A stretch of DNA of 64,000 nt from Euglena gracilis (GCA_039621445.1 CP154954.1:11133229-11197228); one strand, 5' to 3'. Counted from the stretch's first letter, positions 29,537 to 55,287 are shown. A program made the numbers and translations. The notes: generated from the sequence alone by a model not told the origin.

Positions 29537-29853
29537 CGTGTAAGTCTGATTCCCAATTCTCCTTTCCCAATTCCCAAAAAGCCTTCGCTTTCGCCTTGGC
29601 GCACCTACTTGGGAACTGAAAATCAGAGTAACAGAAAATTCCTTTTTCCCACTTCCCAAGAAGCAATGCACGAAGCAATGCAGGGAGGACGGACTGGATA
29701 TCCAAGTCCGGTCCGGAGAAAAGGAAGGACAAAGGGAAAAACAGAATACCACCTGTGGAGAGAGAAGGGGCACCCATTAGGAGATCCTAATAGGATCTGC
29801 TTCCATCCTAACTTCCTCAACGGAAGGGGACAGAAGCATATGCCTGGTACACA
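29537..29853 (-). repeat. 5' LTR of element A (~317 bp)
   Basis: Homologous to 40514-40828. Begins TGTGTACC on the minus strand, abuts the PBS, and interrupts the integrase of element C. Confidence 0.9.
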
Positions 29854-31732
29854 CCTCGACACCGTTGGGTAAAGCGACTTTATAGCGCCGACTTGTACCC
29901 AACCGATCAAGGATCTCACATGGTCCCATCCAGAGGGGGTCCAACTTCGTGGATTGCATGCGAGTTCTACCGTTCCGAACCCACACGCGGTCACCTGGGT
30001 TGTATACCGGTGATTTGTAATCTTGTAAGAATTGTGTTTTTGTTTTTGTAAGTGTATAGCGACTACGTGCTTTTGCACATCCGTGCACAATAATTCTACT
30101 TCAGAGAACAATGTTTCGCAGCTCACGCTAGAACGAGCGGGTCGTTCTGACTCGATGTCGCCCATGGCTGGGGGGTCTCGTCCGAAGACGATTTTGTACG
30201 GTGAGTATTGTAATATCAGACGCGGTAAAGTGTCGATATAAAATAAACACCAGGGTAGTACTTGTAGCCAGGCATTGTGCGATTTGGCCAGAGAAAGTCG
30301 TAGCATGTTGACTACAGCTTTCACTGCCGCTTCAGCGCGACCATTTCCTTTTGGACGATAAATAAGAGAAAAATGCTGCTCGGTTCCTAGTAAATCACAA
30401 AGAATTGTAAAAAATCAAGAAGTAATCAAATGGTCTTGATCACTCACGATATCATTCGGTAAACCCATGAGGCAAATGCATCTTTCTAGAAACGTTTGTG
30501 CCAAAATTTGTGCTGTCAACCCTGCTTTCTGGCATGGAATGGCTACAATGTACCCACTCAGCCGACAGACGACAACAAGAACGTAATCGCAAATTTTGTC
30601 ATCTGTTCCTTTGCAAGGTTGAAGTTCCAGAAAATCCATGCAGAGGGAAGTAAAAATGTCATTTGGTACGGGGAAGAAATCCAACGTACCAGGGGGGGGT
30701 ACCTCTGCCCGGTTTCACAGCTTGACAAATTTGGCACCGTTGCGAATTTTGTAAACAGCGCTTGTACAAATTTTTTTCGGTCAGGGTTGTACAGTATCTG
30801 CGACCCACCAAAGAAAGAAGTTTGGGGGCCCCAGGGTGACCTTGGTTGTGATAACATAAAAGTTCGTCATCAACCAAGTCACAGGGTATGCAGTATTTAT
30901 ATCCAGTATCATTTCGGAAAATCAAACGTAAAGGTGATAAGGTATAATTCTCAAACAATTCGCCATTACGTAATCTTTTTACGACATTATTGTATAAAAT
31001 CATCCTTGGAATAATCCCATTCACGAAAAAAGAGACGAGTTGGATATTCTGATCGCGCAACTCGGCGGGGGCCCGGCATTCTGCCGCGTTTTCGTTTTCC
31101 CCGTACGGGGGCTATCGGCATCCGCCGCCAAGTCCGCGAAACAGGAAAGTTGTCAAGCAGGTTGTCAGCGGCGTCTGCGCGCCTTGCGTATTCGTCGGCT
31201 TCGCGACTTCCGTGGAACGTGGCATAACCCTTGTCAGGGTTACCAGGGTAATACCAGAGTGCACGTGAAAGTGGGTCTGCGACTTTTTGAGTATGACCTG
31301 GTGTGTAAACTACCACCAGGTTGAATTGACTCAAAAATCCGTGCCAACGGCATCTTCGGCCAACTGAGGACATGGCTTTGTTCAAGTCTTCGTTGTACCA
31401 GTGTTGGAGAGCCTCATGGTCTGTCAACACTAGTATTTGTACGAGTGAACTGGCGACCCAACTTCGGAATTTTTGTAGGATAAGGACAGTGGCGTACGTC
31501 TCCTTTTCTCGTATGCTCCATTTGTACCTTGTAGATTTCTGCTGAAGAATGCTACAGGGCGCAGTTCATTGGACGAGTTATGTTGACTCAACACACCGCC
31601 GACGGCATAGTCGCTCCTGTCGACCTCCAGTACGTATGGTTTGTATGGGTCGGCAATGTCAAGTACAACGTTGTCCAACATCAGTTGTTTAATTGTCGTT
31701 AGCGATTCTGGCATTGTATCATCCCATTGTAT
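29854..31732 (-). pseudogene. pol: Pol of element C, 3' part (RNase H, integrase with GPY/F-like module), cut by insertion of A
   Basis: EVDRSDYAVGGVL, LTDH, HNQGH..CQIC, MDF/SDQD, YNPGDRVWVR...KLDPLWMGPCEI. Confidence 0.9.
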
Positions 31733-34700: not shown

Positions 34701-35632
34701 CTTGAACCTGCATGACAAGGCAACACACACGCACAAATTCACCACTGGCAACACACAAGGCAGATTTCTGAATTTTCTCACTGAACCGAGCCTGAAAATG
34801 CTACTGAACTCTGAACCAAGAAACGGCACTGAAAATCTGATCTTGATCCATCAAATGGGTTACACGAAAACTGCTCCAACAACCCTCAAACTGTAAAAAT
34901 TACCCTCAGGAGTTTTGCATTGTGAGGCGTCCCCCACTTCTGAGTTTTTCTCACTCAAGCAAACTCCACAGCCAAAAAATTGCCGCAGAAAGTGCAACTC
35001 ACAGATCAACAGATTTTTCACTGAAAAACTGAACTGAATGCCACTGATGGGCCCAAAAATGAATTTTCCTCAGAAGTGTCTTTTTCTCCTGGGTTTATCC
35101 ACCTTGGTTCCCAAGTCTGAAAAACTGAAAACTGTTTCCTGAGCCCTTAGATGGGTGGCCACAGGGGTGTTTATTCCTGGCCTGGGTGTAGCCCCACCCT
35201 TGGAACCCCTCTTTGCGCGCTTTCCCAAAAAGTTTTGGTTCGAGTGGTCCATCAGAGGTCTCCCCTACCTCAGGATTTGGCAAAAACCCAGATAAAACTT
35301 CCACAGGACTGCTGCGCTGCCACACTCGAAACCCACAATGAAACTGGACTGAAAAATCCCCAAAACTGTGCCGATTCTCCAAGATGTGTCCTTGTCCGGG
35401 GTAAAGTTTCTCTCTGGAAAAACTGTCCGGTGACAAAAGGGACCAGAAAAAACACACAAAAAATTCCAACTTGAAATGTCTGATTTGTCCCCGTCGGGGA
35501 TGGTGACAACGCCGTGCCCCACCCCAAAATGACATTTGGGACAACCGAAAACTGAAAACTCTGAAATTGAAAAACATTGATCTGGCTGCCTGAACACTAG
35601 GAGAAAAATCCCAAGCATCGTGGCTGGGCGTC

Positions 35633-35877
35633 TCCATTTAAACCCCCCCCCCCAAATAACACCCCCCCCCAAATAACACACCCCCCCCCCAAATAACACA
35701 CACCCCCTCGGGGGCCGATTTCGAGCGCCCAAATAACACACCCCCCCTGTTTTCCTTTGGTTTTCCATGTAAAAATAACACCCCCCCCCCAAATAACACA
35801 CCCCCCCTGGGGCCCCAGTTCGGGTGCCCAAATAACACACCGGGGGGGGGGTGTTATTTGGGGGGGGTTTAAGTGGA
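35633..35877. mobile_element. MITE/foldback-like element with TIRs and repeated AAATAACAC-C(n) units
   Basis: TCCATTTAAAC(n)AAATAACAC ... GTGTTATTTG(n)TTTAAGTGGA; seven forward AAATAACAC units plus one inverted; no clear TSD. Confidence 0.7.
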
Positions 35878-36137
35878 AAGCAACTGGGGAAAAAACATAC
35901 ACCCCAGAAACCAGATTCAAAAAATGTTTGACTTGGCTGTTTTTCCATAAGCCAAACTCTGTGAACTGAAAATCCAGAATTAAACTTCTGGCTGATTTCA
36001 CATCTGCCTCCAACACCAAATTACGATGAAAAACGTATGAAACAACAACAATCACAAAAACAGACCACTGAAACATACTTAACACCATAAAGTGCTGCGC
36101 TGTGCCAGTCAGTGGTTAGACCTGTGCTGAAAGACAA

Positions 36138-37145
36138 TCACCACCACCATTGATTCGGTGGAAACCACCCCCAGCTGTTCCAGGGATTTGTGTACCAGTC
36201 CCAACCCCACCAATCATGAAACCAACTTGGTCTCAAAAATTGAAAGTCATTCCAACTGTTTTTGGCAGGCCTCCAGAATTTTTTTGTCTGTCTGAATTTT
36301 CTTGGCTGTGCGACAAAATCTGAGGAAGATTTTTCAGGAGATACTGATGACGGTTGTAAATTTGTGACATGTCCAGAATTCAGATTCACAGGCACATAAT
36401 TTTCTGGACTTAGAAATTTTTCATTGGGCTGTAACTTTTCAGTGATTTGCAATTCAAAGATTTTCAGCCGTTCCTCCAGAATCTTTTCTTCACTCTCCAG
36501 CCGTTTTGACAGAGCCTCGCCCTTCTCGCACAGGGACTGGATGCTTTCAGAAAAACGATTTTCAATTTCTCTGCAAGTTCGTGTGTAAAGGTCATGAAAA
36601 CTATCTGCCAAATTCCTCAGACGGGTTTCAATTTCAGCCATCCGTCCCTCCAAGTGGCTAGACTCACTTTGGCTGGGCACTTCCTCCAGTTTCGTCAGCC
36701 TCTCGTTCAGAGAAAAAGTGTTTGAAAACAATTCTGTGATACCTGCCTCAACTTTTTGCCACCACTCATCCCAAGGGTCATAAAAAGTTTCAGGTTTTGT
36801 GACCTCTGAAGTTTCCACACTGTCTGATTTGACACTCAGCTGTCCGGATTCAGATTCACACGCCACACCTCTGATGTGCAAAACATTTGGACAAGCAAAA
36901 CTCTCTGGTTTAACTTCAGGTTCTCTTGGCAGTGACCTTGTTGGGCTTACCCCTGACGCTTTACAAAATTGACGTGGAGAAGATGAGTCAGGGCCATGAG
37001 AATGTCCAATGGCTGCTTCACATCTGAGTTTCCAAAACTCCCTCTGAGACGCCACATATTCAGCCTCCCTTTTTCTTAGTTCCTCTGTTTGGGTATCACT
37101 GAATTCAATTCCCAACAATTTGAATTGGTCACAGTATTCTTTCAA
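36138..37145 (-). CDS. Unknown coiled-coil protein with a Trp-rich C-terminus, in the gag position of element E (possibly pseudogenised)
   Basis: 335-codon open frame directly after the PBS with E/K/L heptad-like composition. There is no ATG at the ORF start and an in-frame stop lies just upstream. Confidence 0.55.
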   Translation of the reverse strand: MKEYCDQFKLLGIEFSDTQTEELRKREAEYVASQREFWKLRCEAAIGHSHGPDSSSPRQFCKASGVSPTRSLPREPEVKPESFACPNVLHIRGVACESESGQLSVKSDSVETSEVTKPETFYDPWDEWWQKVEAGITELFSNTFSLNERLTKLEEVPSQSESSHLEGRMAEIETRLRNLADSFHDLYTRTCREIENRFSESIQSLCEKGEALSKRLESEEKILEERLKIFELQITEKLQPNEKFLSPENYVPVNLNSGHVTNLQPSSVSPEKSSSDFVAQPRKFRQTKKFWRPAKNSWNDFQFLRPSWFHDWWGWDWYTNPWNSWGWFPPNQWWW

Positions 37146-37821
37146 TTATTTGTCATCAACGGAATCTAAAAATTCTTCACTGACAGAGTCAGTGAAGCCA
37201 CCTCTGCGTACCATGTTGGGGGTCGGGGACCCTGCTCGCCCGGGGGGGGCTGCTGGGGCCGCAACCACTTTTTTCTGGCCCTGGAGGGCTCAGGCCAGGG
37301 CCTTTCTGAAATTGGGCCCCGTTTTCGAACATGCCAACCGGCGGTAATGGGGGTGAGGTGTGCCCCCCCGACCCAGGGTCTCCAGTTGCCCCGCGTAGGA
37401 TTTTTTTTCTTTCCATTGTTGGTTTTTCCCCATGTTTTCAACTTTGAACTTTCAGGATGAAATTCAACAATGACAAACCAACCCACCTACTTAGGATCAA
37501 ACAGCACAGCACAACAAACCTGGGACTTGAGAGGGTGGTTAAGTACCTTTGAGTTCAGGTGTTGAGTGGGACAAAGAATGTGGAAATGAATGCCTTGGCT
37601 TCCTTTTGATGTTTGAATTGTTCTTATTGGCTCCTCAATTCCCACTTGAACAATTTGCTTTGCTGATTCTCAAATCGACTTCTCAAATTCTTCCAGGAAT
37701 TTGCTGGGGTTCCAATTCCACTCGCGTGGCGGTTTACTTGGTTTTTGTTATTCCTACTGGGGGTTTTTGGGAATTTTCTGGGACATTTTTGGCTGCCCAC
37801 GCCAGCGGCAGCCGACAGTAT

Positions 37822-40333
37822 CTTTGTATTGTCAGGAGCGCGATTCTTGAGTTGTCGCGTCAGTGGTACCGCGATTTTCGCGAAGTCCTTCATGTTAATC
37901 GCGTAATACTGCGCTAAACCCAAGAATCCTTTTAAATGGGTGATTGTCTTGATGTTTTCAGGTGTCCAGTTCTTTATAGCTTCGAGTTTGCTCGGAGATG
38001 CTCTCCTTTGTCCGTTGTTAAGAATGTGTCCACAAAATTTTATCGTTTCGCGAAACAAATGCATTTTCGCAGCTTTGACAAAAGCAAATGTTTTTGCAAC
38101 GTTGGCAGTACGGAACGTATATCGCGGTAGTGAATATCAAGGATATCACTACCCGAATTTGTAAGTGGAGGAGGTGTGCCTATCAGCACATCATCAATGT
38201 ATACCATTGAAAACGGTAAGTTCTCGTAACATGCATTGTATCATTCTTTGGACCATGGCTGGGAAATTCTTAACACCCATTGGTAACACCGTCCATTGGT
38301 AAACTCCGGGGGATGTTACAAATGTGATGTATGGTTGTGAGTCGGGGTGTAAGTGCATCTGGTGAAAACCATCCTCTAAGTCGAAAATCAACCAAAGTGA
38401 TTTGTAATCAGGTCTTCGATAAGTAGTAACGGAAATGGATCGTCTTTTGTCTGTGAGTTCAAGTATCGGTAATCCAGCACAAGTCTCCACTTCTTCTCTC
38501 CAGAAGCATCAGGAGGCTTGGGTACCACGAAAGCTTGTGAGGTCCACTCGCTTTTGGAGGGTATGATCCATTTTCGTTCAATCAGTTTTTCGATCATTGT
38601 ATTGAGAGCTTGTTCTCTTTCGCCTGAACAGCGAAAGAATTTTCGGTGCATGGGCTGTGCACCTTCTTTAAGTTCTATTTTACAGATACCAAAAGGTCCG
38701 CCAGTTGCAGCATCTATTAAATGGGAATAGATAGGATGTTCTAAAACATCACTGAATTCGTGATTGATCTTTGTACATAGTTATTGTGATTTGGGATGTT
38801 GACCACCACTTTCTATGACTGCGGATAGTTGGTACGATTGGTCTTTCTGACCTTTATCCCGTAGGAATTTGTCAGTGTGGTCAACAGTTCCGAATGCATC
38901 AAAGAAACAAACACGAAAAATGATTTCCTTCAATGGTGGTAACACGACACCACAAAAATCTTCAAACAGGGGAGTGTCATTCGGTAAATCCCACCACTGA
39001 AAAGTGACATACGTCAGTTGTTGGAAACATTCCGCTTCGGGATTTATAGGAATGAGTAGCACACCGCGTGCTTGATCCCGAAGGATCCTGTCAACAAAAA
39101 AAGGGATAAGTTTTAGAGGTGGGTGTATCCACAGGACCACCTCACCCCAAAGCTTATCAAACGCATTTGTACGGCTTGACCAGTTGTAGGGTAAACGAGA
39201 ATGTGCTTTGGATGAGAACGCACCAATCTCCAATTGTAGGTCCATCGACTTCGCGATTTGCGAGATTTTGGAAAACCAAGTTTCCAAAGTGCGATATTGT
39301 CCAAAATTGAACGCATTCCAGATGCGGTCCGCGAAAACTGTTGCGGTTTAAGTCCTGTGGAGGGCTGAAACACAGTTTACCGAGCCACATCGGTAATGCG
39401 GAGTGTCCGAAGACACTTCATCAGGCATTGTACCAAGTGTATCAGGTGTATTGTATAAAGGACAATTGTCGTTGGCATCCTGCCACTTGTATGCGGGGAC
39501 ATTTTGGGGGGTTGGCATTCTGCCGTTCGGGGTCAGAGAGATTGGCTTTCTGCCATTGGAGATCTTCCAGCGCGATTCTCGTTATTCCGAACAGGGACGT
39601 GATTCTGCATTTGTCCAATTGTCGATGTACTCCAACACACAACGGGTAACAACCCGGTGTGTTGTGTTCTCGGTCAGCGGGCAGGGTACCCTCGGTACCG
39701 GTTCCGGTACCAAGTGTACTCTGGTTGTTGAGCAAAGCGATTAGTTTGGAAGGTTCAACAATACATCCACAGTCGAAATCAGGTTGTGTGGAAATTCTCC
39801 GGCAATGTGCGCATTGGTAGGAAGTGTCGGTCTGGTAGTGCATGTCAGCCATGTGTAGTGTGTGCATAGGGGTGTTGGAAGTTGTAGTTGCTGGGGGGTG
39901 TACAGGTGTGTCCAAAATCGACACACCTGGTGGAAAACGTGAAATTTGTGCAGCTGGGCGGTTACTCGACACCGAAATTTCTTCAGCCCTTTGGGCTTTC
40001 ACCTTGGAACCCAGTGAAACGTGGGGGGTTAAGCTACTCGCTTTCCCTACCGCATGGGAAACGTGCGGTAAAATTGTAGTGGGTAGGGGGGCAGCTTTCT
40101 CTTTACCCGTGGTGTAGGAAACGATGTTTTCGTTTGTGGAAAACGTTGTGGCCAGGCGGGGGGACATCTGGGAAGGTGTCTTGGGGGAGAAATTCGGTGC
40201 TGTGAGCTGTGTGCGTGTAGTAGTGCGCAAACCGAGGGAGGGGCAGTCCACAACAAGGCGGTTCTGACGCAAGAATGGAAAACCCAAAATTACTTCAGAC
40301 CCGCGGATACCCAATTCGTAAATCCAGGTACCC
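37822..40333 (-). pseudogene. pol: Pol of element C, 5' part (protease end, Cys motif, MTase-like domain, RT)
   Basis: ILGFPFLRQ; QCAHC...DCGC; EIGAFSS...NAF...LWIHPPLKLI (38781-39287); LDYRYLN, FDLEDGFHQ, YIDD. Joins 31732 once element E is removed (NTKI|QWDD). Confidence 0.9.
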
Positions 40334-40513
40334 ATGGTCGAACGGGATTCCGTTCACCAAGGCCTCCAAGGGGTGAAAGCCCATCAAAAAACCGACAAAA
40401 GACACAAAATCGACAAAAGTGTTCCCTTTGTGGATCACACAACCACCACTCCTCCAAATGTTACCGTTCTCGCTCTCCCCGCCCGAACCAACGTCTCCAC
40501 AATGATACAAAAC
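40334..40513 (+). pseudogene. gag: Inverted gag fragment (second zinc knuckle)
   Basis: The + strand translates TQNRQKCSLCGSHNHHSSKCYRSRSP, homologous to CSLCGSSDHHSSKC of A and B'. Confidence 0.78.
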
Positions 40514-40828
40514 AGTGTACGTCTGATTCCCAATTCCCCTTTCCCAATTCCCAAAAGCCTTCGCTTTCGCCTTGGCGCACCTACTTGGGAACTGAAAATA
40601 AGAGTAACAGAAAATCCCTTTTCGCACTTCCAAAGAAGCAAAGCACCGAGCAATGCAGGGAGGACTGACTGGATAACCAAGTCCGGTCCGATGGAAAGGA
40701 AGGAAAAGGTATAAAGAAGAATACAACCTGTGGAGAGAGAAGGGGCACCCATTAGGAGATCCTAATAGGATCTGCTTCCATCCTAACTTCCTCAACGGAA
40801 GGGGACAGAAGCATACGCCTGGTACACA
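40514..40828 (-). repeat. 3' LTR of element B
   Basis: Homologous to 29537-29853; preceded on the minus strand by a PPT. Confidence 0.9.
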
Positions 40829-41652
40829 TCCCCCTCCCAGGGCTTTGCCCGATTTCCGCTTTGGACCAGGCATTCTGGCCACAGGGATTTCGGACACAGA
40901 CCTGGTCTGTGGAAGGTGCACCCTGGCGCATCCACAGGGGCCCTTTCCGTCGCACAAGGGTCTACTCAAAAAGGGGGGGGGCGGAAAGGAGGGGACCCAA
41001 AAAGCCCAAAACGCGCAAAATTGTTTCACCTATTCTGCGGTGGCTTATGGGTATATAGTATGTTATAGCCCACTGGGGAAAATGGGGCTGGCGGGTTTCC
41101 TTGCCAAGCAAACACATCCACCCAGTTTAGGTGTGCCCAAGGCACTTGGGGTTGGGTCCATGGGCATTCCAGGAAAACCCATGGTGAGGGTATGGAAGGA
41201 GAGGGCCTCCGACCAGTCAAACCTGGGCAGGGCGAATGGCCAGTCAAACCTGACCACGTAAAAGAAAATCCTACTCTACAAAACCAACTGCCGGCGACAG
41301 CATTTGCCCCGGGGGGAAAGTAGAGAGAAGTGGGGGGTTGGTTTAGGCCAAAAAGTTGTGCTGTCTGGCAGCCTTATGGCCTCAAACGGCCGAAAAGAGA
41401 AGAAAGGGAAAGGAAAAGAGGCCGTCGGCCCTGTGCGCTGCGGTTCGCACGCCCGCGAGAGGGGAGAGGGGAGAGGGGTGTGCATGCATGCGCACGGAAT
41501 CCTGCACATGGCAGCATCCCGGTGGGAACTTACTAGCGGCGAATACCGCAAAGGGTGTTCGAAGGGGTTGTTCTGGCGAATACCCACACAGGGTGTCAGG
41601 CGAATACCTGACGAGGGTTCTGAAAGACGCGGCATTGGCGTTTACAGACACC

Positions 41653-44600
41653 TCACCTGCCTTTATCGGCTGGACGTTCACGCACCTCACGCCAGTATTC
41701 GTGTTGGGGGTCCCCTAATGGGTCCTCAACCAACTCCAGTTGGCGAGGGGAACGCGGCGGAGCTGATTCACTCCGAACGGTGTTGAGCTCCGGATCGTTG
41801 GCATCAAAGGAAGGGGTCTCCCAGTCCTTGATCCAATTATCCGGCAGCTTCTCCCTGGTACGTTCAGCATGATGCTGAAGGTACCGTTGGAGCTGCTCCC
41901 AGAAAATTCTGGGCAACAGCACCGGCCAGATGATGTAATTCATCCGGGGGTGATTCGCAGGCACCTGCGGGGGCATCCCCGGGGTCTGCTTGAAGTTGAT
42001 GTCATACATCCACCTCGCTGTCCGAGCTCTTGCGGTATGGGGCCGTAATACAGCCGCCAACCAACCTCTGAAGTACACCAAATCGTGTTCTTCAGGAGGC
42101 CACAGTGGCAAGGCGTATCCGCCATGCTGACGCTTGGAGAACAGGGGGTAAACCTGTGTCTCCCAGTCACCATCAGTCCAGAGGTAAGGCATTCTTACCT
42201 TGGCGTGTTCCTCGACGGCGAGGCGCATTGCCCCAGCGTCGATCTGGAACTCACGGGCCATTCCCGTGTGGCGGTAGCTTTCTACCTTTCGGAAGTCGGA
42301 GTGCTTCACGCGGCCTTCCACCTGTTTGTACTCCTTCTTCCACTTCTCCAGTGTCTCCCAGTGGTGGGGGACAATGGTGGTGACTGCTCCATCAGCAGTC
42401 TGCACGAACGCCACAGTTCGCCACATACGAGCGCCACACAGTTCGGCACATATGCCCTGTGATGGAACCACGAGGATTGCACCTGCCGCTTGCACACATG
42501 CACAAACGGCTGGTTGTGCCGCACATGGTGGCACACGGTGCACGTCCAGGCAATGGACGTGCCGTGCTGGTAATCCAACACGCAGTCCTCACCAAAGTAC
42601 TGTGCCAGTACTCTGGGTGAGCGCATATTCCAGAACGTCCAGGTATGTTCCGGGACATAGTGTCAAGGTTCTCCTCGGACGAAGAGGGGCTTAATCCATC
42701 GATTCAGTGACCCTTTCTGGTGCCTAATAGCAGCCAGTTTCTTCGTCCTCTCTTCCACGGTGCCTAGTCTGGTCAGGATATCCTGAGTCCAGAGCTGGGC
42801 ATCCGCAGACACAGGAAGTGAAGCAGGTTCATCCTGCTCCTCATCCGTCGATCCGGCGGAAGACTGGGCCTGTCGACCACGAGCCTTACCTTTCGGCTGG
42901 CCGTACCCGGACGATGCAACGGCCGAATAGTCGTGCATTATCGTAGGGCCTTTCGGCTGTCCGCCAGTCTGACCTCCAGCGCCACCTTTCGGTGGTGGTT
43001 TCCCATCACCGCCTTTGGCAGGGGGCTTACAGGGTGCAGCACCCGGTTTGCCTCCTTTCGGCTTCGCACTCCCAGAATCAGGAGGCGATGCCTGCGGCTT
43101 GCTCCTGGTATCAGGAGCCGGTGGTGCCGGAGTAGAAGCTTGCCGTCTGGGCGAAGCGGGCGTACTGACCGCTGGGTTGCGCATGACGCTCCGAGGGGTC
43201 GGCACATGTTCCGGGGGTTGTTCAGCCGGCCGTCGCCGAGCAGGTTCATCCTGTCCGACGAGGCGTGGCACTGTGGTCGTCACCAGAATCGGTGCTTCCA
43301 CAGGTGCTGGCACTCCCAGAAACTCTGCCATTGTCCTCGGGACGGCAGGGGCCTCGCGCGGTGTCGGTGGTCGTGGGGGTATCTCCTCCACTTCCGTTTC
43401 GACATCCGGTCTAGGAGGTTGATCCTCCACAACCGCTGGCGCAGGTGCTACGGGAGGTTGATCCTCCGCTGTAGCTGGTGCGACAGTTGGCTCTGTCGGC
43501 TGGGGTTCATCCCGTGATGGTGGTTGCACTGCTGCCGGAGATGGGGGTGAGGGAACGCCGACATCCGGCGTCTCCACGACCTCAGCGGCGGAGCTTGATG
43601 CTACGCCTCCACGTCGTGGCGTTAGTGCAGCAGCCACGGCAGTAATGCCGGTGACTACGGCGCCGAGCACACGGCCTCCTAATGAGGTGCGTGCTGTGGG
43701 ACTGGCAGGTTCTTCGAGGTTGTCCTCGACGACCATACCAGTCACCTCGGCTGGAGGCTCAGCCGTTGGAACAGGCGTAGCAGCCACAGGTATATCCCCT
43801 GTGGGTGCTCCGTCTGGTCTAGGCTGTGCCGGAGCAGGCAGAGCAGCGTAGAGGATATCCTCCACGTTCTCACCTTCCTCCTCAGGAAGTTCCTGGTCTC
43901 CACCTACCGGTGGACAGACGGAAGCCGCCGCGGGATCCGGTGAAACCGATCGTTCCCCTGCCGCTCGCGGGGCAGAGACGAAGGATACAGCCGTTCCTGT
44001 CGGAGACGGCGGCGCTGCCTCCAGGATAGTGACGGAGGGGCTGCGTTCGCGTCCCTCCCGCCGCGGAATCGCGGTGGTGAAGCGACTGAAGCCTCACGTC
44101 TCCTTCGCGCCAGAGGTTCATCCTCCGGGGCGATGAAGGCGCGCAGATCCTCGGGCGAACGAGGATCGTCGGGGTGCAATCGGCATCCCTGGTCATCCGC
44201 CAGCCTGTAAAAGGCCAGCGTGTTGGGCCAGGGTGGCGGCCATGATGGCTGCACCCAGGCGTTGGAAGGCCTGTTCGCGCCCAGGAAGCCGCGATAACTC
44301 GTGTCTTCCCAGACCTCGAAAAAGCCTTCCTCGAATTCCTGAACGCCGAACTCGAACCCAGAACACCGCGGTAACGCGTGTTTTCCCAGACGTTGAAAAC
44401 GCCCTCCTCGAACTCCTGAACGCATGCCAGAATCGGCATACGCTGTTCGAGGATGGCCTGCGGGTGACACATCAGCGGAAGGAATCCTACCCGGTCGAGG
44501 GTTCCACCAAACTGTCGCCGCAAATGTTCCTCCATGCTGATATCAGCCAGGTGCCAGTTGGGGCGCAGGTGGCCGAGATTCCGACGACGAGGACCCTCGA

Positions 44601-47133
44601 CGGCGTCACCGTAATCCGGTGGCAGGCTTTCCAAACCGGGCCTATCGTCCTGGGGGTCACGGAGATGTATATACACCTCCATGACATAGGTGGTCCAGGC
44701 TCGCCACCAGAACTGCTGCAGCATAAAAATACGCTGCTTGTGGACGCGGCGACTTTTGCCCTGGACGTCCGGGGCGTCGCGGCACACATGCATAAGCATG
44801 CGGCGTCCCATCTCCAGGCCCGGGTTATCCCGAGGCGGTAGAGGACTTCCGCGCACGCCGAATCCCCAGAAGTCGACAGGAAATTCCTGCCGGCAGTACT
44901 TACAGCAGAGGTCATACCTCTGCGGGTAAGCCAGGGAAACGCGCTTAACGCGGAAGGTGGAGCCGTAATGGCTCACCAGCCACACCTGGAGGTTGTTGCA
45001 CCACAACACCTCGATCAGGCGTTCGATGTCGGGGTGTAGTGGGTAGAAGTCCCACTGCACGCCGAGGGGTCCGACTGTATGAATACAGTCGAAGATTGCC
45101 TTTAGCCTTCGGGCCAACACACGCTGGTCCCGAAATCCCAACTGGTGCAGGTAACTGCGACCAGTGGAATCGCTGAAGAGACCCCAGTTCTGGCAGGGGT
45201 ATCCCAGCCAAAACCAGAGCTGCCAGAAACCTGGCTGGGCATCCAGCAAAGGTCTGCCACCCTCACTTTCGAAGGCGTACAGATCTATTCCGTAATGGAA
45301 TAGTCTGACTCGGTTCTCGGTGTGGCGTAATACCACATCGATGACTGCTTGTGGAGGAGTGACAGGGCGGTTTCCTGCAACATGGTAATCATGCTGCATT
45401 CGCCAGCCTTCGTCCTCCAGCTCCTCCTTGAACCTGAGCATATGCTCAAAGTCCGAGAGGACTTCTGCTGGTTCCTCTTCTTCCTCACGTGCTGTTCCCT
45501 TACCTTTACCCTCACCCTTCCCTTTGCCGGCCACGCCTTTGCCTTCTCCCTTGCCTTTGCCCTCGGCCTTGCCTGTGTCCTTTCCCGTCTGGCGAATACC
45601 AGAGGGTCGGGCGCTCGGTGCCGCAGGAGTCGGTTCGGTTCCTTCCCATTCCATCTCTGGGGAGGGACCTGGCCACTCCGCTGCACGTCGTGGTGATGGC
45701 GTGGCTGGGCGTTGGCTAGGAGTCTGGCATGGGCTTGGCTTCGACGCAGGTGGTCGCGGCTCCTTCCATACCGGAGGGATCGGCGGTGGCATTGCGGAAA
45801 CAGGACGGCTCATCGCCACCTGTGCCTCTGCCGGTGGTCGTCCAGCCGGGGTATCCTGGCTGGGTTCCACTTGCATCGCCACACCGCCTTCCGCGTCCCG
45901 TGGGCTGGGTCGCCTGGGTTGTGGGGTAATGTTCTCCGTAGTCCTGTCGCGCTTCAGGGTGGCAGGTAATACTGCCACACCTGCCGGGGGCTCACCGGGT
46001 AATACCGTGGTTGCCACCCGCAGCTGCGGCTGGTACGGATGGTATGGGGTGTATCCACGGCGCTGAAGGGCAGCCAGAGAGGAGTAATACCTCGACCGGT
46101 GCTCTTTAGACACGAATACTGGCTCCTGCAGGAAGTGCCCAGCAAGCTCATCCTGCTCGGTTTCCGGAGGTGCCATGTGATAGTAGGGAGTCTCCTGCCG
46201 ACGGGGGATATCCCCAGTTTGGACAGGAGCGGCACTGGGTGGTCGGCCTGCCACACAGTGGGGAGGTTCATCCTCCACCACTATGGGCTCCGCCTGCCGC
46301 CGTGGCTCAACGCCAGGGACAGGGGCGACCGGTGATGCCTGTGGCATCCAGTGCAAGAACATGTGTTGGACGTATGCCTCAGGGGGCACGTCCGACTGTC
46401 CGGCTGGGAGCACGCGTGCGCCGCGCGGGTAATCCGCGTGCGTCGCGTACTGCGAGACAAATTGCTCCGCTGGCGGCTCGCGCGGCGACATTCGCTGCGG
46501 CGAGGGCGGGCGAGCAAAAATTGTTGTCATCCCAGGTGGGACATGCACAGCCTCACCTACCGGTGGGGGCGTGTGCTCACGCAAATGCACGGTGTGGGAT
46601 CCCACCGGCGTCTGCGTTTGCAGCATGGGCGGCACATACACACCCAGATCCATCATGGTCTCACCGGGTTCGAATCTGGAATCGGATGCCGACGAGAAAT
46701 ACCGTCTCCCCGTCATCAGGGCTTGACCACAGGGACACCACTGAGCCACAGGCGTGTTGGCTACCACCAACAACTGAGCACAGTATGCATCCCAAAGGGC
46801 TTGCATGAACGGCTCCGTTGGGGGGTGTGCGCACGTACGCATCGCCCGCTCCAACGTCTCCGTAGTGCGGAAGATCATCTCTCCTGCATACGGGTGCAGG
46901 CGCGATCTGCGTTGCGCTGGTGGCTGAGGTGCCGGCCGCTGGACGGCAGATGGATCTGGTACCGCATATGTGGACCGGCTGCTGGTTGCCGCGGCGAATA
47001 CCGGAGCTGAAACCCTCTCAGCATGTGGGGCACCCGGAATCGGGGCCTCAGCATACTGAGGGTACTGGGGGTATGGCGCGCAGGAAGGCTGCGGCCATGG
47101 TGGACCTGGTCCAGGTCCGCGCCCAGGCAGCAT
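41653..47133 (-). pseudogene. ORF3 of element B (uninterrupted by insertions; a few frameshifts); product unknown
   Basis: ATG at 47133 opens 1083 codons and continues in ORFs 43904-44470, 42663-43865 and 41653-42543. Conserved with A and the diverged D. Confidence 0.82.
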
Positions 47134-47350
47134 GATGCTACCCGAACGACGACGACAACTAAGGGTACCCTTGTTGTCAGTCGCTTTGAGTGCTGGTGCA
47201 CTGAAAAAGGAAGGCTTTTATCTTAATCAAAACTCTGCGAGAAAAATAGAGAAATAAGGAAGTGCAGGGGGGGTATAAACGCGAAACATTCACATAAAAC
47301 ACACACATTCTCCAAAACGAAATCGTTTCAGAAAGTGTTTATGTTTATGT

Positions 47351-50300
47351 CTATTTTGTTGCGCAGAAAGTGTTTATGTTATTGCGCTTGTTCCACAGCT
47401 TCCAATCCTGCTGGATATATCCAACAAAACTGGATGCTGGCTCCCAAGTGTCCTCCTCTGGCCCATACCCTTTCCAGCGAACTTTCCAGTAGTGCACACC
47501 CCTGTCGAGCTTGTGGTCTATTATCCTATCGACCACAAAGTCGTCCGTTTCAGGTAATCTGGAACGGGGCTTGAAATACAGGCAGGGGATAGCTTTTCCG
47601 TCTGGGGGGCTTAGGTACGGTTTGAAGTCGTCCATATGTGTTGAAGTTTTGTAAAAACGATTTCCGTCTGTTGGAATGAGTTTCTGTGATACGTGATTGG
47701 ACTGCAGAGCGGAGTGATTCCACTTCTGCAAACCACGTTTCACAGCTGACGCTACTTCGGGCGGGTCTCTCCGAGGGGATATCCCCTATGGCCGGAGGGT
47801 CTCGTCCGAAAACAATTTTGTACGGTGAGTGTGGTAATACCAACCCTGGCAAGGTATTGATGTAAAATAAACACCAATGAAGAACGGATAACCAATTCTT
47901 ACCCGAGTCAGCCAGTGAAAGGCGAAGCATATTGACAACGGATTTCACGGCTGCCTCGGCTCTACCATTGCCTTTCGGGCGGTATATAATGGAAAAATGC
48001 TGCTCAATGCCGAGTAAACCGCACAAAGTTGTGAAAAATCGCGACGAGATCAAGTGATCTTGATCACTCACGATTTCGTGCGGTAAACCCATTAAGCAGA
48101 CAATTTTTCCAGGAATATGGATGCCAAAATTTGGGCTGTCAACCCTGCTTTCCGGCATGGAATGGCTACAATGTACCCACTCAGCCGACAGACGACAACA
48201 AAAACGTAATTGTAAATTTTGTCATCTGATCCTTTGCAAGGTTCAAGTTCGATAAAATCCATGCAGAGGGACGTAAAAATGTCTGGTGGTACGGGGAAAA
48301 CGTCCATCGTACCAGGGGGGGTACCTCTGCGCGGTTTTACAGCTTGACAAATTTGGCACCGTTGCGAAATTCGCAAACAGCGCGAATATAATTCTTTTTT
48401 ACTCAGGGTTGTGCATTATCTGCGACCCACTAGTGAAAGAAGTTTGGGGGCCCCAGGGTGACCATGGTTGTGATACCTCAAAATCACATCATCAACCAGG
48501 TCTTGGGGTATACAATATTTATAACCAGAAACATTCCGGAAAATAAGCCGCAATGGTGATAGAGAGTAATTCTCTATGGATTCACCATTACTACGTCTAT
48601 TCACAATGGTACTATATATAGGGTCACGCGAATAACCCATTCGCGGAAAAATAGGGGGGTATGAGTTTCCGTACGCGTAATGCGACGGGGTGCGGCAGTG
48701 CGTCCACGCCGGCGCCTTCCACGCAATGGTGAAATGGCGATGCTGCGATATACACGGGAAACGGGTAGTGAATCGAGCATATTGTCCGCAGTGTCGGATC
48801 GACGTGCGAACTGGTCAGCCTCATGGCTGCCATGAAAAGTCGCATCACCCTCATCCGGGTTCCAAGGATAATTCCAGGGGGCTCGGCTGAGAGGATCCGC
48901 AACGTTTTGCGTGTGACCTGGGGTATAGATAACCACCAGGTGAAACTGGCTCAAGAACTCATGCCAGCGGCATCTTCTGCCAACTGATGACATGGCCTTG
49001 TTTAGGTCCTCGGTATACCAGTGTTGAAGGCTCTCATGATCCGTCAACACGCGTATCTGGACCAAGCTGCTGGCTATCCAGCTGCGGAATGTCTGGAGAA
49101 TAAGCACAATGGCATATGTCTCCTTTTCGCGAATGCTCCATTTAACCTGTCCTTTCCCGTTGTCGCCCTGCAGCTTCCTGCTGAAGACAGCCACAGGTCG
49201 GAGTTCATTCGCCGCATTATGCGGGCTAAGAACCCCGCCAACTGCGTAATCGCTGCTGTCGACTTCCAGGACATACGGTTTATATGGTTCCGCGATATCG
49301 AGAACCACGTTCTCGAGCAGCAAGTTCTTGATTTTATTCAAGGCCTCGCGCATTTGGTCATCCCAAATGACTTTTGCGTTATCGGGTGTCCGATTTTTGA
49401 GTTGTCGGGTTAGGGGTATCGCGATTTTCGCGAAATCTTTCATATAAACCGCGTAATATTGGGCTAATCCCAAAAATCCCTTTAAATGCGTTAAGGTCTT
49501 AATGACCACAGGAGTCCATTTCTTAATGGCATCCATCTTACTGGGTGCGGCTTTACGCTGCCCGTTGCTCAGGATGTGTCCGCAAAACTTAATAATTTTG
49601 CGAAACAGGTGCATTTTGGAACCCTTCACAAAAAGCACATGCTTTTGGAACGCGGATAACAGCGCCCGCACATCGCGATAATGCGGTTCGAGGATATCCT
49701 CGCCCGATTTCGCGGATGGTGGTTGGGATCCCACCAGTACATCATCGATGTACACCAGAGCAAACGGTAAAACGCGCAAAACCCACTCTATCATGCGTTG
49801 AAACATGGCTGGGCCATTCTTATCACCCATGGGGAGTACCATCCATTGGTACACACCCTTGGATGTCACAAATGCCGTGTACGGTTGCGAATCAGGATGC
49901 AAATGCATCTGATGGAAACCGTCTTCCAGATCAAAGATTGACCACAACCGGTTATCCGATTGTCTGGTGATCAAATCCTCGATCAGCGGTAACGGGGAGG
50001 GGTCATCCCTCGTTTGGAAGTTCAGGTACCGGTAATCCAGCACTAGTCTCCACTTCTTCTGACCAGACTGGTCAGCAGGTTTGGGCACCACAAAATCCTG
50101 TGATGTCCATTCGCTCTTGGAAGGGATAACCCACTTCCGCTGGATGAGCTTCTCAATCATCTCTTTCAGAGCTTGCTCGCGTTCACCTGAACAACGGAAG
50201 AATTTCCGGTGCATGGGTTTAGCGCCATCCTTGAGCTCGATTTTGCAAACACCGAACGGACCGCGAATCGCGGGGTCGATGTCGCAGGCGTATACTGGGT

Positions 50301-52294
50301 TATCCAGTACACCATGAAATTCGCGAGTAATTCGCGAACAGTAGTCAGCAGACTTGGGGTGTTGGTCCGCACTCTCAACGACCGCAGAAATCTGCGTTGA
50401 GGGTGTGGCATCCCAATTGGTACCAAGGTATCTTGGCACACACACATCGGATATTCCGAGTGCGTCGAAGAAACAAATGCGAAAAATGATTTGTTTAACA
50501 GGTGGTAATAATATACCACAAAAGTCCTCGAATAGTGGTACATCAGCGGGTAAATCCCACGAATGAAAACACACAGAGGATAGTTGGTGAAACCAATCTG
50601 CATTCGGACTGACAGGTATGAGGGGAGCTCGCCGCGTTTCATCGCGGGGGATTTTCTCCACCACATCCGGGATAAGTTTTGGGGGAGGGTGCATCCAGAG
50701 GACCGTATCACCCCAAAATTTTAGAAACACGTTGGAATGTCGCGACCAATATCGTGACAAGCGCGCATGCGCTTTTGATGAAAACGCATCAATTTCCAAC
50801 GACAAATCGAAGGAATCGGCCAAAACCGCCATTTTGGAGGACGATCCCTCCAAAATACGGTATTGACCAAAATTAAATGCGTTCCATACACGCATCACGT
50901 ACGTGTCGACCTGGTTCGTGGCAATTCAGGGATCCGCAAACATAAGTCAAGGGTGTGTTATCCACACTCCCTAGGGGCATTCCCAAGGGTTGATGGGTTG
51001 GATGGGTTAATACCCAGTCCGTATCATGCGAGATGGAGGTGGGGGAGGTGTGTGACACGGATTTCGCGGTCCCAAACAACAAGGCAATACCTCGTTGTTG
51101 GAGCACTTGATGTACGGTCGCACATTGCGATCCGCAACCAAGTGTATGGTTACGCGAAATCGGGATTAGTGTTGGTGTTTGGACTAGACATCCACAATCG
51201 AAATCTGTCTGGGCAGAAATTCTCCTTCAGTGCACACATTGGAAGGTAGTGTCGGAGTAGTGGTCCTGGTCGCGCATGTTGGTCTGGTGGGTGTGTGTGT
51301 AAAAGTTGGAATGCGCTCTTGTAGCTGCTGGGGGCTGTACAGATGTATCTGAAAGCGATACATCTGGTGGAAAACGGGGTGTTGGTGCAGCTGGGCGACT
51401 ACTGGACACCGTACGTACTTCGGGCCTTTGGGCTTTCGTCTTGTAACCCAGTGGAACGAGGGGGGTACCGCTACTCGCTTGCCCTGCCTCATGGGGAACG
51501 GACGTTGGTGTGTCAATGGGCAGGGGGTGAACTTTCTCGGTACACCCGGTGTGGAAAACGTTGGTTGGTGTGGTTGGTAACGGGGTAAAAAATTTTGAAA
51601 ACGGTGTGAAAAAATTGGTGGTCGTCGCGGTTGACGCCACAGGTGCTGAAGGTTTGAAGGGCAATGAAGAGAATGGTGATGTGCGCAAACCGTGGCAGTG
51701 GCAATCCACTACCAGCCGGTGCTGACGTGAAAAGGGGTATCCCAGAATTACGTCAGAACCATGGATTCCGGATTAGGATCCCCAGGTGTCCGGAAAATTT
51801 TGTGGTTGGGGGGGGTGTGAGTGGTGCTTGGGGATGAGGGGTAGGACAATGTCGAAAAAGCATCCCAAGTCACCACCACACATGGGGGTGTTGTCAGCCG
51901 TCGTAATTTTGCTCGGATTCTTGGCTTTCACCAAGAGGGGGGTTGGTATCAACCCGAACCGAAAAAGTAGTGCAATGCGACAACCAGTGTCAATGATAAT
52001 TCTGACTTTTGCACAAAAATTTTGTATTTTGGTTTCCGCTTGGACCAAAAGTTCCATGGGGGGTAAGCAAAGTGAAGGGTCTGGCGAAAATAAGTTTTCT
52101 TACCAGCTTTCCCACCAACCCTTTCCTACTTTGCACAACATTCCGAGCAAAAAGTTGGAGTGGGGGGTGGGGGACCCGAAAATTTCCCGGGTACCGACCA
52201 GAAAGGCAGATGGGCAGGGGCGGCAGGGTTGATGAGGTCCTACATCCATCTGTTCACCAGCCCAGAGGTCCGTGCCCTCGGACCTCGGGCTCCC
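47351..52294 (-). pseudogene. pol: Pol of element B (PR, MTase-like, RT, RNase H, integrase, chromodomain)
   Basis: IIDTGC; a single 765-aa ORF (48601-50898) contains EIDAFSS...WMHPPPKLI, then RT (YIDD) and RNase H; integrase and chromodomain lie downstream. Confidence 0.94.
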
Positions 52295-55287
52295 CTACTC
52301 CAGGTCCGAACCGGCCGAATAGCCGGCTATGGGCCTTTTAGAGGTGTAAACGGATTTCAACGTGCGCACTGCCATGCGGGCACCGGCTGACCTACCCCGA
52401 GGGGTACTGTGTTTCCGCTCATCGCGGAACGGGATTCGGGAGCTAATACCACCGGAACGGGGACCCGATGACCGTGAATTGCCTGATTGGCGTGAAAATG
52501 CGGAGGAACCCGAACCCCGTGAAGATGTCGAGCCTCGCGGACTCTTAATACGCTTACGCGCTTCAGGATTAGGACATTCCCGAGACATATGTCCCGCTTT
52601 GTTGCACAAAAAGCGCACGTTATCCGTGGCTTGGTCCGAAGAACGCGGATATCGCGTTTTCGATCCGGTGGTAGGTGAAGTGGGTGAAACCGGTGATTTT
52701 TGCAATGCGTTCACCGAACCAGCCGGTAATCCACCGGTTGGGTGTGCGTTATACGCGGATTGAATCTGACCAAGAAGCTGTGATAGCTTCAACTGCTTGG
52801 AAACGTAATTCCAGCGTTGGTCAAGAGGCATTGGATGACTCGCCAACTCCTCACGGTGGATATCCTTGATGAGGCTAGGCGTGAAATGCAGGAGAACAGC
52901 ATCAAACTGTTCGCGCACTTGCTTTTCACTGAGTTCATCCACTTCAGCGGCAAGTCCTAACCATTTGGCATACCAAAGGTCAATGGACTTCCACTTGCGG
53001 TCGGGTGGGGCGCATTGCCGCCACTTGGTCTCCAGGGTAATCCTAGCGACCAAACTTGAACTGGTGGAAGCGTATTGCTCCACCAGGTCATCAAAGGAAA
53101 CGCGGTAGCTAATAACGAGTTGTCGCGCGCGTTCCTTCTCATCCCTTGGGAGGCAATCGATGAAGTCCATCTTGATCACCTCCGGGTTTGTGTCCTGGGT
53201 TGGCCCTTTCATTGCCCAGTAGTACTCCCAGTCCCGGAAAAACTGTCTCCATGTGGTTGGATCACCGTCCCATTGGGGTTTCACCTTATTCGCGATTGCG
53301 ATGGTGCCCTTGAAGTCTTTCTGAACAACCCAATGACCCTCGGTGGTATTCCGCGGTTTTGGGCCTGGGTACGCTCGAGCACCAAGCGTATCCTTTCCGG
53401 ATTCCTGTCGGAATCACGAGATTTCTGGTGAAGGTGAATCCTGGTACCGGAAATACGGTCGCAAACCCTGTTGGTCACCCGTAATACGGGGACTCTCCGG
53501 TGTGAGGGTATGTGGCGCATGCAACGTGTGGCCCACTCCCGGTGTACGGGTTTGGCTCATTCCTAGCACAAGCATGGAATGATGGATTTCATGGTGGAGA
53601 CTTGGCGGAATCGCCGTGTTTTCCGCAAATTCGGTTCCCGTAATTGGAAATTCATCCGAAAACTAGGTTTGGGTTGTGGGCAAGGCCAATGGTGGCACAT
53701 TTCGCGGAATCGCGGATTGTGACACTCGGGATACGGGTGGTGATTTGGCGCAACTTCGGCAATGCATACTGCCGAATTGCGGTGTGAAACCCGCTGTTGG
53801 TTGGACACATTATCCAAACCCACAGACAAGTCATGCACACTTTGCTCCAAATGCTCAACGAGTTGGAGTTGGTCGCAAATATGGTCAATTTCATCCTCCA
53901 AAACGCGAATACGCTTGCGGTAACGGGAAAAGTCATCCAAGTGCGGAATCCTTTCGGAAATTACGGTAACATCTTGGACAAGCTTCCCGTGAGACTTATC
54001 CAATGATTGGAGTTGTCCCATTAATGCTTTTACAGCATTTGACAGAATCTGCAAAGGTGATGTTACCTTGGTTGGTGTGGTGGTGGGTGCCACCGGTGCA
54101 GGGTTATCCGACAACGCGGTTGTGGTACCCACGGCAAATTTCCGGGTTGTGGTTTATCCAAAAACGCGGAAATTCGCTCATCCAACCTGGTGATCTCACT
54201 TAGCGTGGATCAGGCGTTCCGATTCACCGATTCCTCGGTGGGAAAGTGCGGAATTGCTTTGTTGCAAACCCACAATGGCCGAGTTAATCCCGCCAATGTC
54301 GGATTGCAACTGCAACTGCAGAGAATCCTGCCGTTGTGCTACTTCCGCTACTTTCGCGCTCAGATTGGACAATCCAACGTGATTCGCGTCACAATAGCAG
54401 GTTTTCTGATCCAAGCGGGAAAGTCGCTCCTCCAACTGCCGCACATACGTGTGGGGAGCAAAATTCTCGTTGGCTTGTGACTGGAATTGCCGAAACGTTT
54501 CCGTTTCATCGCACAACTGCATAATGCGGTGTTGCAATTCATGGAAAGTTGCGGACAATGTGGTGAAATGGTCCATAGACACAAATCCACCACTGCTGGA
54601 TGTTGCAGACGAGAAATCTCGTGCATGCAACTGTTGTTGCAAATGCAACAACGAGGAGGAACGGGACTCCATTTGTCCCGATAACTGTCGTAGTGAGTCA
54701 TGCAAGTGCAGAAACTTGGAGTCATTCCGCGTTTCCGCTTCATGCATGCATTCACTAATTTGCCGGAAGTTTTGCGGGAGTTGTTGGCACATTTTGTCAA
54801 AGGTTTCCCGAAAGTTTGCAAGGTCAATACCCGCACTTTCGAAATTCCTCTGGCAATATTTGCCAACTTCCTGCAAGTAATTCCAGCAGTATTCCAGCTT
54901 GGTTAAGACATGTTTTTGGTTGTCCTCATCAAACTGGAGCACTTTGTTGAGTGCGGTTGCACAATCTGCAACGCATTGTTGCACATGGTTGAACTGCCTC
55001 ACAAGGGGGTGATCCCCGGGAAGCCGAGCAACGATATCCTGCACATCCTCAGCAGTGAGGAGCTCCACAGTGCCCTTCCCATAGCCATCCATGTGTTGGG
55101 ACGTACCAGAGTATTCTGGTACCACTAGGCGAGTCTCCGGTTGCCAAGGTAGTGCGGGATAGCACCCAAGATCGGGTGGTGGTGGCAAAGCTCTGTAAGG
55201 GCTTGCCGGTGGACGAACGGGTGGTGGTTGAAAGAAACACGGGGTTTCCAACCCACCATCACCAGAGAAGCCCGGTGGCGGAATCAC
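52295..55287 (-). pseudogene. gag: Gag of element B (5'-truncated, internal deletions)
   Basis: PQWDGDPTTWRQFF motif; degenerate knuckle RFLCNKAGHMSREC; ends SDLE-TAG. Confidence 0.85.

Follow-up and report, generated by a model that had tools for sequence, protein, structure and literature searches.

Background

Conserved additional open reading frames (aORFs) between pol and the 3′ long terminal repeat (LTR) are well known in plant LTR retrotransposons (PMC7264820). Retand, a plant Ty3/gypsy element, has a region of 2.9–6.6 kb between pol and the 3′ LTR, with TRP28 open reading frames (ORFs) and tandem repeats (PMC11963269), and LTR retrotransposons of bdelloid rotifers carry non-envelope third ORFs for a GDSL esterase and a DEDDy exonuclease (PMC5408684). 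Euglena elements termed DAM-LTR or EpiLTR, with a chromodomain, DAM and sometimes a DNA methyltransferase (DNMT), were described in 2026 (bioRxiv 10.64898/2026.05.21.726589). LTR elements make up 22–33% of the 2.37-Gb Euglena gracilis genome (PMC11252322), yet their biology is almost undescribed. Here we analyze a 64,000-nt stretch of E. gracilis DNA (GCA_039621445.1 CP154954.1:11133229-11197228; hereafter the window), in which a predicted chromodomain-bearing LTR retrotransposon carries a long coding region, here called ORF3, between pol and the 3′ LTR. ORF3 is an orphan aORF of unusual size in a chromovirus of a protist, aORFs as such being already known. Positions are counted from the first letter of the window, and every feature of the element or of ORF3 lies on the minus strand unless marked +.

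ORF3 in three copies of the element

Copies were compared within the window by self-comparison and tblastn. ORF3 was found in all three of the copies that reach the region (A, B and D), and the order of its blocks is the same in each. In copy B (41006–55287) it comprises about 5.5 kb of sense coding sequence (47133–41653) between the chromodomain and the polypurine tract (PPT) and LTR. Copy A (8445–29856) is 93–96% identical to B at the nucleotide level. Copy D (59600–64000) extends beyond the window and aligns with B in four protein high-scoring segment pairs (HSPs; tblastn) of 33.5–46.1% amino acid identity with nothing alignable between them, which agrees with an earlier reading of the sequence (the preliminary description) that the blocks are kept in D while the linkers diverge. 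A further sequence, A′ (1–8431), is 99.4% identical to 13423–21819 and adjoins a 13-N gap (8432–8444). Because it is a near-identical duplicate of A beside this gap, A′ was not counted as an independent copy; the 8.4-kb duplication probably arose either in assembly or as a recent segmental duplication. Element C (29538–40828) shows about 74% identity in pol; it lacks gag and carries neither chromodomain nor ORF3, its integrase (IN) running straight into the LTR. Since this gag-less copy is rearranged, its lack of ORF3 is uninformative on ancestry.

The ORF3 of copy B is not one intact frame and reads in three frames. Its stop-free frames are 47217–43882 (1111 aa), 44542–43904, 44093–42663 and 42588–41653. 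In 300 dinucleotide-preserving shuffles of 41653–47217 the longest frame measured 221 aa at the median and never more than 483 aa. The observed 1111 aa exceeds twice this maximum, and the long frame is therefore not a product of chance, whereas antisense frames of 225–234 aa are at about chance level. A 77-bp tandem duplication in B (44275–44423), absent from A, shifts the frame at the end of the globular block called domain 1; a repeat search gave its units as 44275–44346 and 44352–44423, 72 nt each, 82% alike and spaced 77 nt. Further lesions in B are a frameshift near 44090 and an in-frame stop (42663–42665), and about 90 nt are missing at 42409–42418, removing part of a Cys cluster. In A, by comparison, ORF3 is interrupted upstream of its intact C-terminal domain by frameshifts and by insertions of 1.67 kb (10845–12516) and 3.7 kb (15634–19343), the latter a tandem repeat. 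This array, also present at 2215–5955, consists of about 2.8 units of about 1.33 kb and lies in the N-terminal part of ORF3; frames of 260 aa on the + strand of its units had no Pfam match.

In D about 840 codons of ORF3 lie in one frame interrupted only by three stops, which supports a single ancestral ORF. Since the lesions are not the same from copy to copy, and D is almost colinear in a single frame, the ancestral ORF3 can be reconstructed from these sequences as one ORF of about 1,800 codons, starting some 190–217 nt past the pol stop and ending about 0.8 kb before the PPT. The preliminary description had placed an ORF of about 5.5 kb after the chromodomain in A, B and D. The coding region and its three copies are as described there, but no copy holds an intact ORF and some 813 nt before the PPT are non-coding. 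The ATG proposed as the start in B is found at 47133.

Selection on ORF3

Ratios of nonsynonymous to synonymous substitution (dN/dS) were calculated by the Nei-Gojobori method on tblastn-guided codon alignments, to which dead copies add neutral changes. Between A and B, dN/dS was 0.72 in the N-terminal part of ORF3, 0.67 in domain 1, 0.51 in the middle linker and 0.56 in the C-terminal domain; in the other genes it was 0.43 (reverse transcriptase (RT) and RNase H), 0.50 (gag), 0.55 (the upstream ORF0) and 0.60 (IN). Between B and D it was 0.28 in domain 1, 0.37 in block 2, 0.21 in the basic block and 0.37 in the C-terminal domain, and the C-terminal domain gave 0.41 between A and D. Third codon positions were the least conserved in every block (for the C-terminal domain of B and D, 0.64/0.69/0.48 at the three positions). 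The values of 0.21–0.41 against D indicate that the ORF3 region is under purifying selection, in two diverged families. Selection on the blocks had been proposed before these ratios were calculated, and none of them (0.21–0.72) lies near 1.

Globular blocks and Cys/His patterns

The ancestral product would be one protein of about 1,800 aa in which a few globular modules alternate with long linkers rich in Pro, Ala, Glu and Arg. Pro accounts for 14% of the residues of ORF3, Ala for 9.6%, Arg for 8.3% and Glu for 7.6%, and the long linkers are probably disordered. The modules are listed in Table 1. The N-terminal part had no Pfam match. Domain 1 contains the block CCKYC...HVC...QQFWWRAW and is 35.6% identical between B and the visible part of D (132 aa). 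The C-terminal domain is 46.1% identical over 245 aa between B and D; past its Cys/His clusters it continues with RHTGMARxxQIDxGAxRLAxEE, AVLRPHT and ANHPRMN..IWP..LPRxFWE. The Trp/Cys/His motifs quoted in the preliminary description are all present in the translations.

Conserved Cys/His clusters that resemble zinc-binding sites occur in two of the modules: domain 1 has CxxC...HxC, and the C-terminal domain has CxxCH..HxC..Cx4CxxC..CxxC. Eleven Cys/His residues of the C-terminal domain are common to A and D (C75, C78, H79, H89, C91, C109, C114, C117, H123, C142 and C145). Their spacing does not appear to fit the RING/PHD consensus of eight Cys/His ligands. An internal duplication relating domain 1 to the C-terminal domain was considered and rejected (hhalign probability 0.3%).

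Searches for relatives

The ORF3 pieces of A, B and D matched no family in Pfam (E up to 10), NCBIfam or PHROGs, in line with what had been supposed from the translations, and profile searches detected no chromatin-related domain in them. By these searches the ORF3 protein appears to belong to no detectable known family. An exhaustive phmmer search of domain 1 against 1.84 billion representatives gave six matches, none of them named. Four of the six are short fragments of 46–64% identity. Two stand-alone environmental proteins, P0005 (332 aa, 32%) and P0007 (470 aa, 25%), are distant relatives of domain 1; they come from short environmental contigs and have no retroelement domain in the protein itself. 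A profile built from the domain 1 alignment retrieved only P0007 and P0002, and Pfam found nothing above threshold in the six relatives. ORF3, P0005 and P0007 have in common FWxxxFxxGY, GG(I/V)(Q/R)W, YPQxYxCxCxxCxE....DFWGxxxR and HxC, and the CxxC...HxC core (C195, C198, H233 and C235) is invariant among them.

The ESM Atlas gave no usable match to domain 1, and a word-indexed protein search for longer proteins with domain 1 found none. With the C-terminal domain, a word-indexed near-match search returned only the product of an E. gracilis transcript, one among 5.8 billion proteins. No relative was encoded in JGI metagenome contigs (two scans) or viral contigs (one scan). A sequence profile search of the PDB gave one row at chance level (E 0.42). 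Structural comparisons used weak models and exclude nothing: VIA-align against 48,161 chains reached a best Z of 4.1, and Foldseek found no match in either PDB or BFVD at E ≤1e-3.

Transcription and route of expression

EG_transcript_25142 of E. gracilis (EukProt EP00667) encodes a 230-aa product, P0001, that is 96% identical to the C-terminal region of A (E 2.2e-107) and also covers the basic block. This match indicates transcription of ORF3 over at least its 3′ third, and it places the origin of the window in E. gracilis or a species very close to it. The spacer between pol and ORF3 has stops in all frames, including a TAA in the ORF3 frame at 47220–47218, which excludes simple frameshifting or read-through from pol. 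Two polypyrimidine tracts followed by AG (AG at 47236–47235 and 47202–47201) lie in the spacer and could be candidate cis- or trans-splice acceptors; they are kept in A and B, which at 95% identity is uninformative. Euglena uses spliced-leader (SL) trans-splicing. From two raw RNA runs, 66 and 44 reads fell on the 14.9 kb, 0 of them in 44873–47854, which is too shallow for calls of subgenomic RNA, splicing or SL addition, and in these shallow data no joints or loose ends were listed at the candidate acceptors. A metatranscriptome contig of 2402 nt is colinear over the chromodomain, spacer and ORF3 (45390–47638), as expected from genomic RNA or from contaminating DNA, which the library may contain. 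Expression of ORF3 from a spliced or trans-spliced subgenomic RNA is a possible but rather unlikely route.

Interpretation and alternative explanations

The best overall explanation, at a probability of roughly 0.6, is that ORF3 is an accessory gene (an aORF) of the element, not an envelope (Env) gene, a chance frame or a nested foreign element, and that its product would act within the cell as a zinc-dependent scaffold. Such a scaffold would bind nucleic acid, chromatin or protein and might aid replication or help the element to cope with host silencing, and its translation would begin at a start codon of its own, on an RNA that is processed or initiated internally. That ORF3 is a real, conserved non-Env accessory gene is very probable. 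We infer an intracellular or nuclear role for the product; zinc-binding and action on chromatin or nucleic acid together are a tentative suggestion, at less than even odds. That the product is an effector of a kind not described before, acting on chromatin or the epigenome and based on two novel zinc-binding domains, completing a toolkit of chromodomain and Dam-like domain and made from its own cistron by SL trans-splicing at the AG sites of the spacer, is unlikely. If true, this would be the first LTR element to make a subgenomic mRNA by trans-splicing.

Several observations weigh against the accessory-gene explanation or parts of it. Intact ORF3 is found in 0 of the copies in the window, which makes its current function uncertain. 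Where B has its ATG, A and A′ have CTG, making the start codon uncertain. The dN/dS values come from HSPs, which favor conserved stretches, and dS against D is saturated (pS 0.61–0.74 for B and D). The case for zinc consists of residue patterns, and the Pfam zinc-finger matches are sub-threshold (zf-RING_5, B-box and Zn_ribbon_10 in D, E 0.58–5.1; E 0.13–0.19 in P0005). AlphaFold2 models are poor (pLDDT 49.4 in domain 1, 29.3 in the C-terminal domain). One conserved borderline hydrophobic motif, GGRVLGAVVTGITAVAAAL, reaches a Kyte-Doolittle (KD) value of 1.6 in B. Finally, the arguments for a possible nuclear or anti-silencing role are contextual (Cys/His clusters, Lys/Gly-rich tracts and chromatin modules in the element family).

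ORF3 might instead be a captured host gene or a transduced fusion of host genes, a passenger that does nothing for the element. The GC content at third codon positions is 0.63–0.68 in the globular blocks (41656–45486) and 0.46–0.56 in gag, protease (PR), RT, IN and ORF0 of the same copy (47553–55287), and this step, together with the stand-alone relatives of domain 1 (332 and 470 aa, with no retroelement domain in the protein), hints at cellular genes as the source of the ORF3 domains. Domains of host origin could nonetheless serve the element, and a passenger is quite unlikely given that the place and order of ORF3 are kept in two families that differ by 54–67% in protein, at dN/dS <0.5; transduced genes are moreover usually present in one or few copies (PMC7264820). 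It is improbable that a globular block of ORF3 represents a strongly diverged DNA- or chromatin-modifying enzyme with a role like that of the EpiLTR DNMT, in which case the element would be another retrotransposon with an epigenetic toolkit. This idea draws on related Euglena LTR elements that join chromodomain, DAM and DNMT (bioRxiv 10.64898/2026.05.21.726589), on the chromodomain and Dam-like domain of the present element, and on polar residues of domain 1 that are invariant at 25–32% identity (D82, N100, D120, Q189, D205, R212, R246 and R247). Against it, the ORF3 pieces matched no methylase or other enzyme family up to E 10, DNA_methylase was found neither in the ORF3 pieces of A, B and D nor in the scanned window frames (of 91 frames of at least 170 aa, those neither antisense nor overlapping), and the DNMT-like motif PCQ in domain 1 of B was dropped because P0005 and P0007 do not have it. 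The structural comparisons described above yielded no enzyme fold, which with models this weak excludes nothing.

The position of ORF3, sense and between pol and the 3′ LTR, is the classical env position, and the hydrophobic motif, of the form LGGRVLG..., could be taken for part of an Env-like or other membrane or extracellular protein. However, the KD value of the motif is 1.6 in B but lower in A (1.46) and in D (1.32), whose version includes an Arg, and no 19-residue window of KD ≥1.6 was found in the in-frame sequence of A or D. The N-terminus (MLPGRGPGPGPPWPQ... / MLPGRGPGPGPPWPQPSC...) is Pro/Gly-rich with no hydrophobic signal-like stretch in this crude scan. The supposed lack of a signal peptide and membrane anchor is thus borne out apart from the single borderline window. 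The 14% Pro and long charged linkers are likewise unlike Env, no Env family was matched in Pfam at E up to 10, and no fold match was found in BFVD or PDB with the weak models (pLDDT 49 and 29). ORF3 accordingly shows neither signal peptide nor convincing membrane anchor and appears not to be an Env, such a role being very improbable. It is just as hard to credit that the region is decayed non-coding DNA with chance frames, or an unrelated nested mobile element. A GC content of about 0.60 does keep frames open, as in the antisense frames of 225–234 aa, and every copy of ORF3 is broken. Yet the shuffled sequences never reached half the observed frame length, codon positions are asymmetric with dN/dS <1, and the protein is conserved where the DNA barely aligns. 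Pfam found no transposase, RT or other mobile-element domain inside ORF3, and the flanks are conserved in D, with the chromodomain upstream and the 3′ untranslated region (UTR), PPT and LTR downstream. The non-coding or nested-element alternative is largely refuted.

The carrier element and its copies

Table 1. Positions of ORF3 blocks and of other features of the element in the window
Feature	Position	Strand	Remarks
ORF3, N-terminal part	45487-47133	-	Pro-rich linkers, small Cys/Trp segment, KG-repeat followed by acidic tract
ORF3, domain 1	44365-45486	-	globular, 374 aa; Trp-rich; core YPQxYxCxCxxCxE....DFWGFxxR ... HxC
ORF3, block 2	44156-44311	-	WPPPWPN...FYRLxDxQGC...DPR; 42.1% over 57 aa vs D 63510-63340
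ORF3, basic Gly/Lys/Pro-rich block and start of C-terminal domain	42672-43157	-	GAAPCKP..KGG..SSGYG; 33.5% over 176 aa vs D 62391-61924
ORF3, C-terminal domain	41653-42662	-	Cys/His clusters CxxCH..HxC..Cx4CxxC..CxxC
ORF3 of A, C-terminal domain	9089-10288	-	intact, one frame, 399 aa
ORF3 of A, remainder	10248-20052	-	two insertions and frameshifts
ORF3 of D	60860-63999	-	one frame 63999-61483 with three in-frame stops, then frameshift into 61906-61061
ORF0 of B, coiled-coil	53566-55287	-	upstream of gag
gag of B with zinc knuckle	52295-53413	-	Pfam zf-CCHC E 0.0012
Dam-like domain, RT and RNase H of B	48601-50925	-	Pfam RVT_1 7.1e-24, RT_RNaseH_2 4.2e-21, Dam 0.0077
IN of B	47550-48221	-	part of remainder of element B, 47550..55287
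Chromodomain, end of pol	47354-47602	-	PF00385 Chromo E 8.2e-12, 45.3 bits (cut-off 25.1)
Spacer between pol and ORF3, non-coding	47134-47350	-	217 nt in B; 35 nt shorter in A
3′ UTR	40840-41652	-	about 813 nt, from ORF3 stop (41653) to PPT
PPT	40839-40830	-	GGGAGGGGGA; directly adjoins LTR
3′ LTR of B	40829-40516	-	TGTGTACC...TACA; about 314 bp, TG...CA ends

By its sequence features the carrier is assigned to the chromodomain Ty3/gypsy-type LTR retrotransposons of E. gracilis that bear a Dam-like domain, the Ty3/gypsy assignment being made from domain content and order rather than from an RT phylogeny. The gag zinc knuckle, RT, RNase H, integrase, chromodomain, TG..CA LTR and PPT expected of a chromovirus were all found. 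Copy B has the order ORF0, gag, PR region, Dam-like domain with RT and RNase H, IN and chromodomain, and its pol ends with a TAG at 47353–47351. The zinc knuckle is also matched in A (zf-CCHC, E 3.1e-05). Pfam matched rve on the A copy only (E 1.6e-05; 25.5 bits, under the cut-off of 32.6) and had no rve match in the IN frame of B itself. The region from pol to the 3′ LTR is about 6.3 kb, and the size of the carrier is estimated at about 16–17 kb from copy A less its insertions. The 3′ UTR is partly kept in D (41067–41400 against 60160–60500, 74% nucleotide identity), as is the junction of PPT and LTR. In a DNA-like sequencing run 31,604 contig pieces matched across the element at ≥92% identity, consistent with a high-copy family. 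Scans for Rfam families and tRNAs found nothing in the window.

The LTR of B is 92.7% identical to 29538–29853. Element C has its LTRs at 29539–29856 and 40516–40829 and contains a nested element flanked by 615-bp repeats (31734–32348 and 37215–37817). These two LTRs directly adjoin the putative primer-binding site of A and the PPT of B, such that three internal regions share two LTRs. Simple insertion of C into a tandem LTR was considered, but no target-site duplication was seen. The putative primer-binding site, TGGTAGCAGAGGAGGTCACGATCC..., lies at 29500–29538 (-), 2 nt past the 5′ LTR of A, and a string like it stands before the LTR in a metatranscriptome contig. Copy B is cut off at 55287, where it stands head-to-head with part of its own 5′ region, present as an inverted copy (55288–59511) that is 94–95% identical to A 24717–28934. 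The junction at 55287/55288 is a perfect palindrome and could be a rearrangement or an assembly artefact; beyond this breakpoint other copies run on, namely A at 28940–29537 and the loose end of a metatranscriptome contig.

The Dam-like domain of B lies between PR and RT (50300–50925, -) and matches PF05869 with 16.4 bits (E 0.0077), below the cut-off of 28.1. Its motif LWMHPPP (about 50697) has HPP at the NPP position. An Asn-Pro-Pro triplet is near-universal in the Dam domains of Euglena DAM-LTR elements (bioRxiv 10.64898/2026.05.21.726589), and the HPP suggests that the domain in B may be catalytically altered. A second Dam-like ORF (11056–11670, +), inside the 1.67-kb insertion of A, has an intact LWANPPF motif and is 28% identical to the Dam-like domain of B (E 3e-10); the insertion may be a DIRS-like or other DAM-bearing fragment. 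ORF0, a second unexplained extra ORF of the element, is coiled-coil-like and spans 26950–29449 (-) in A (about 900 aa). Its Pfam matches are weak, sub-threshold ones to exocyst coiled-coil families (Sec10_N, 8.8e-4; Sec3_CC, 1.8e-3).

Comparison with known systems

A 5.5-kb gene maintained by selection in at least two families would mean that a large share of the genome encodes an undescribed protein family. If ORF3 acts on chromatin or on the nucleic acids of the element, it extends the picture of Euglena retrotransposons with epigenetic tools of their own. If it is merely structural or a scaffold, it is still among the largest additional ORFs known in LTR elements and a source of two orphan Cys/His domains. 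A literature search found no earlier description of ORF3. It turned up only the Pfam-based account of the Euglena DAM-LTR elements, whose main text, supplements aside, does not mention it (bioRxiv 10.64898/2026.05.21.726589). Those elements and the carrier are alike in host species, Ty3-like structure, chromodomain and a Dam-like domain beside RT. Unlike EpiLTR, the carrier has no detected DNMT, and the Dam-like domain of B has HPP and not NPP.

The bdelloid ORF3s resemble the Euglena ORF3 in standing in the env position without being env genes, and both fit a picture in which LTR elements take up accessory genes as modules (PMC5408684). However, the bdelloid proteins belong to recognizable enzyme families, whereas no family was detected for the Euglena protein. 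Retand and the Euglena element are alike in a very long region between pol and the 3′ LTR, conserved orphan ORFs and a repeat array, the last found in copy A of the Euglena element (PMC11963269). The ORFs of Retand are antisense in a non-chromovirus, while that of Euglena is in sense orientation and its repeat array is an insertion found only in A and A′. With the aORFs of plants (PMC7264820) ORF3 shares its position and orientation, its presence in every window copy that reaches the region (3/3), an unassigned function and, as is often the case for aORFs, family specificity. It differs from them in that its host is a euglenozoan protist and not a plant, in its very great length of about 1,800 codons, in having no Env-like features, and in belonging to an element that also has a chromodomain and a Dam-like domain.

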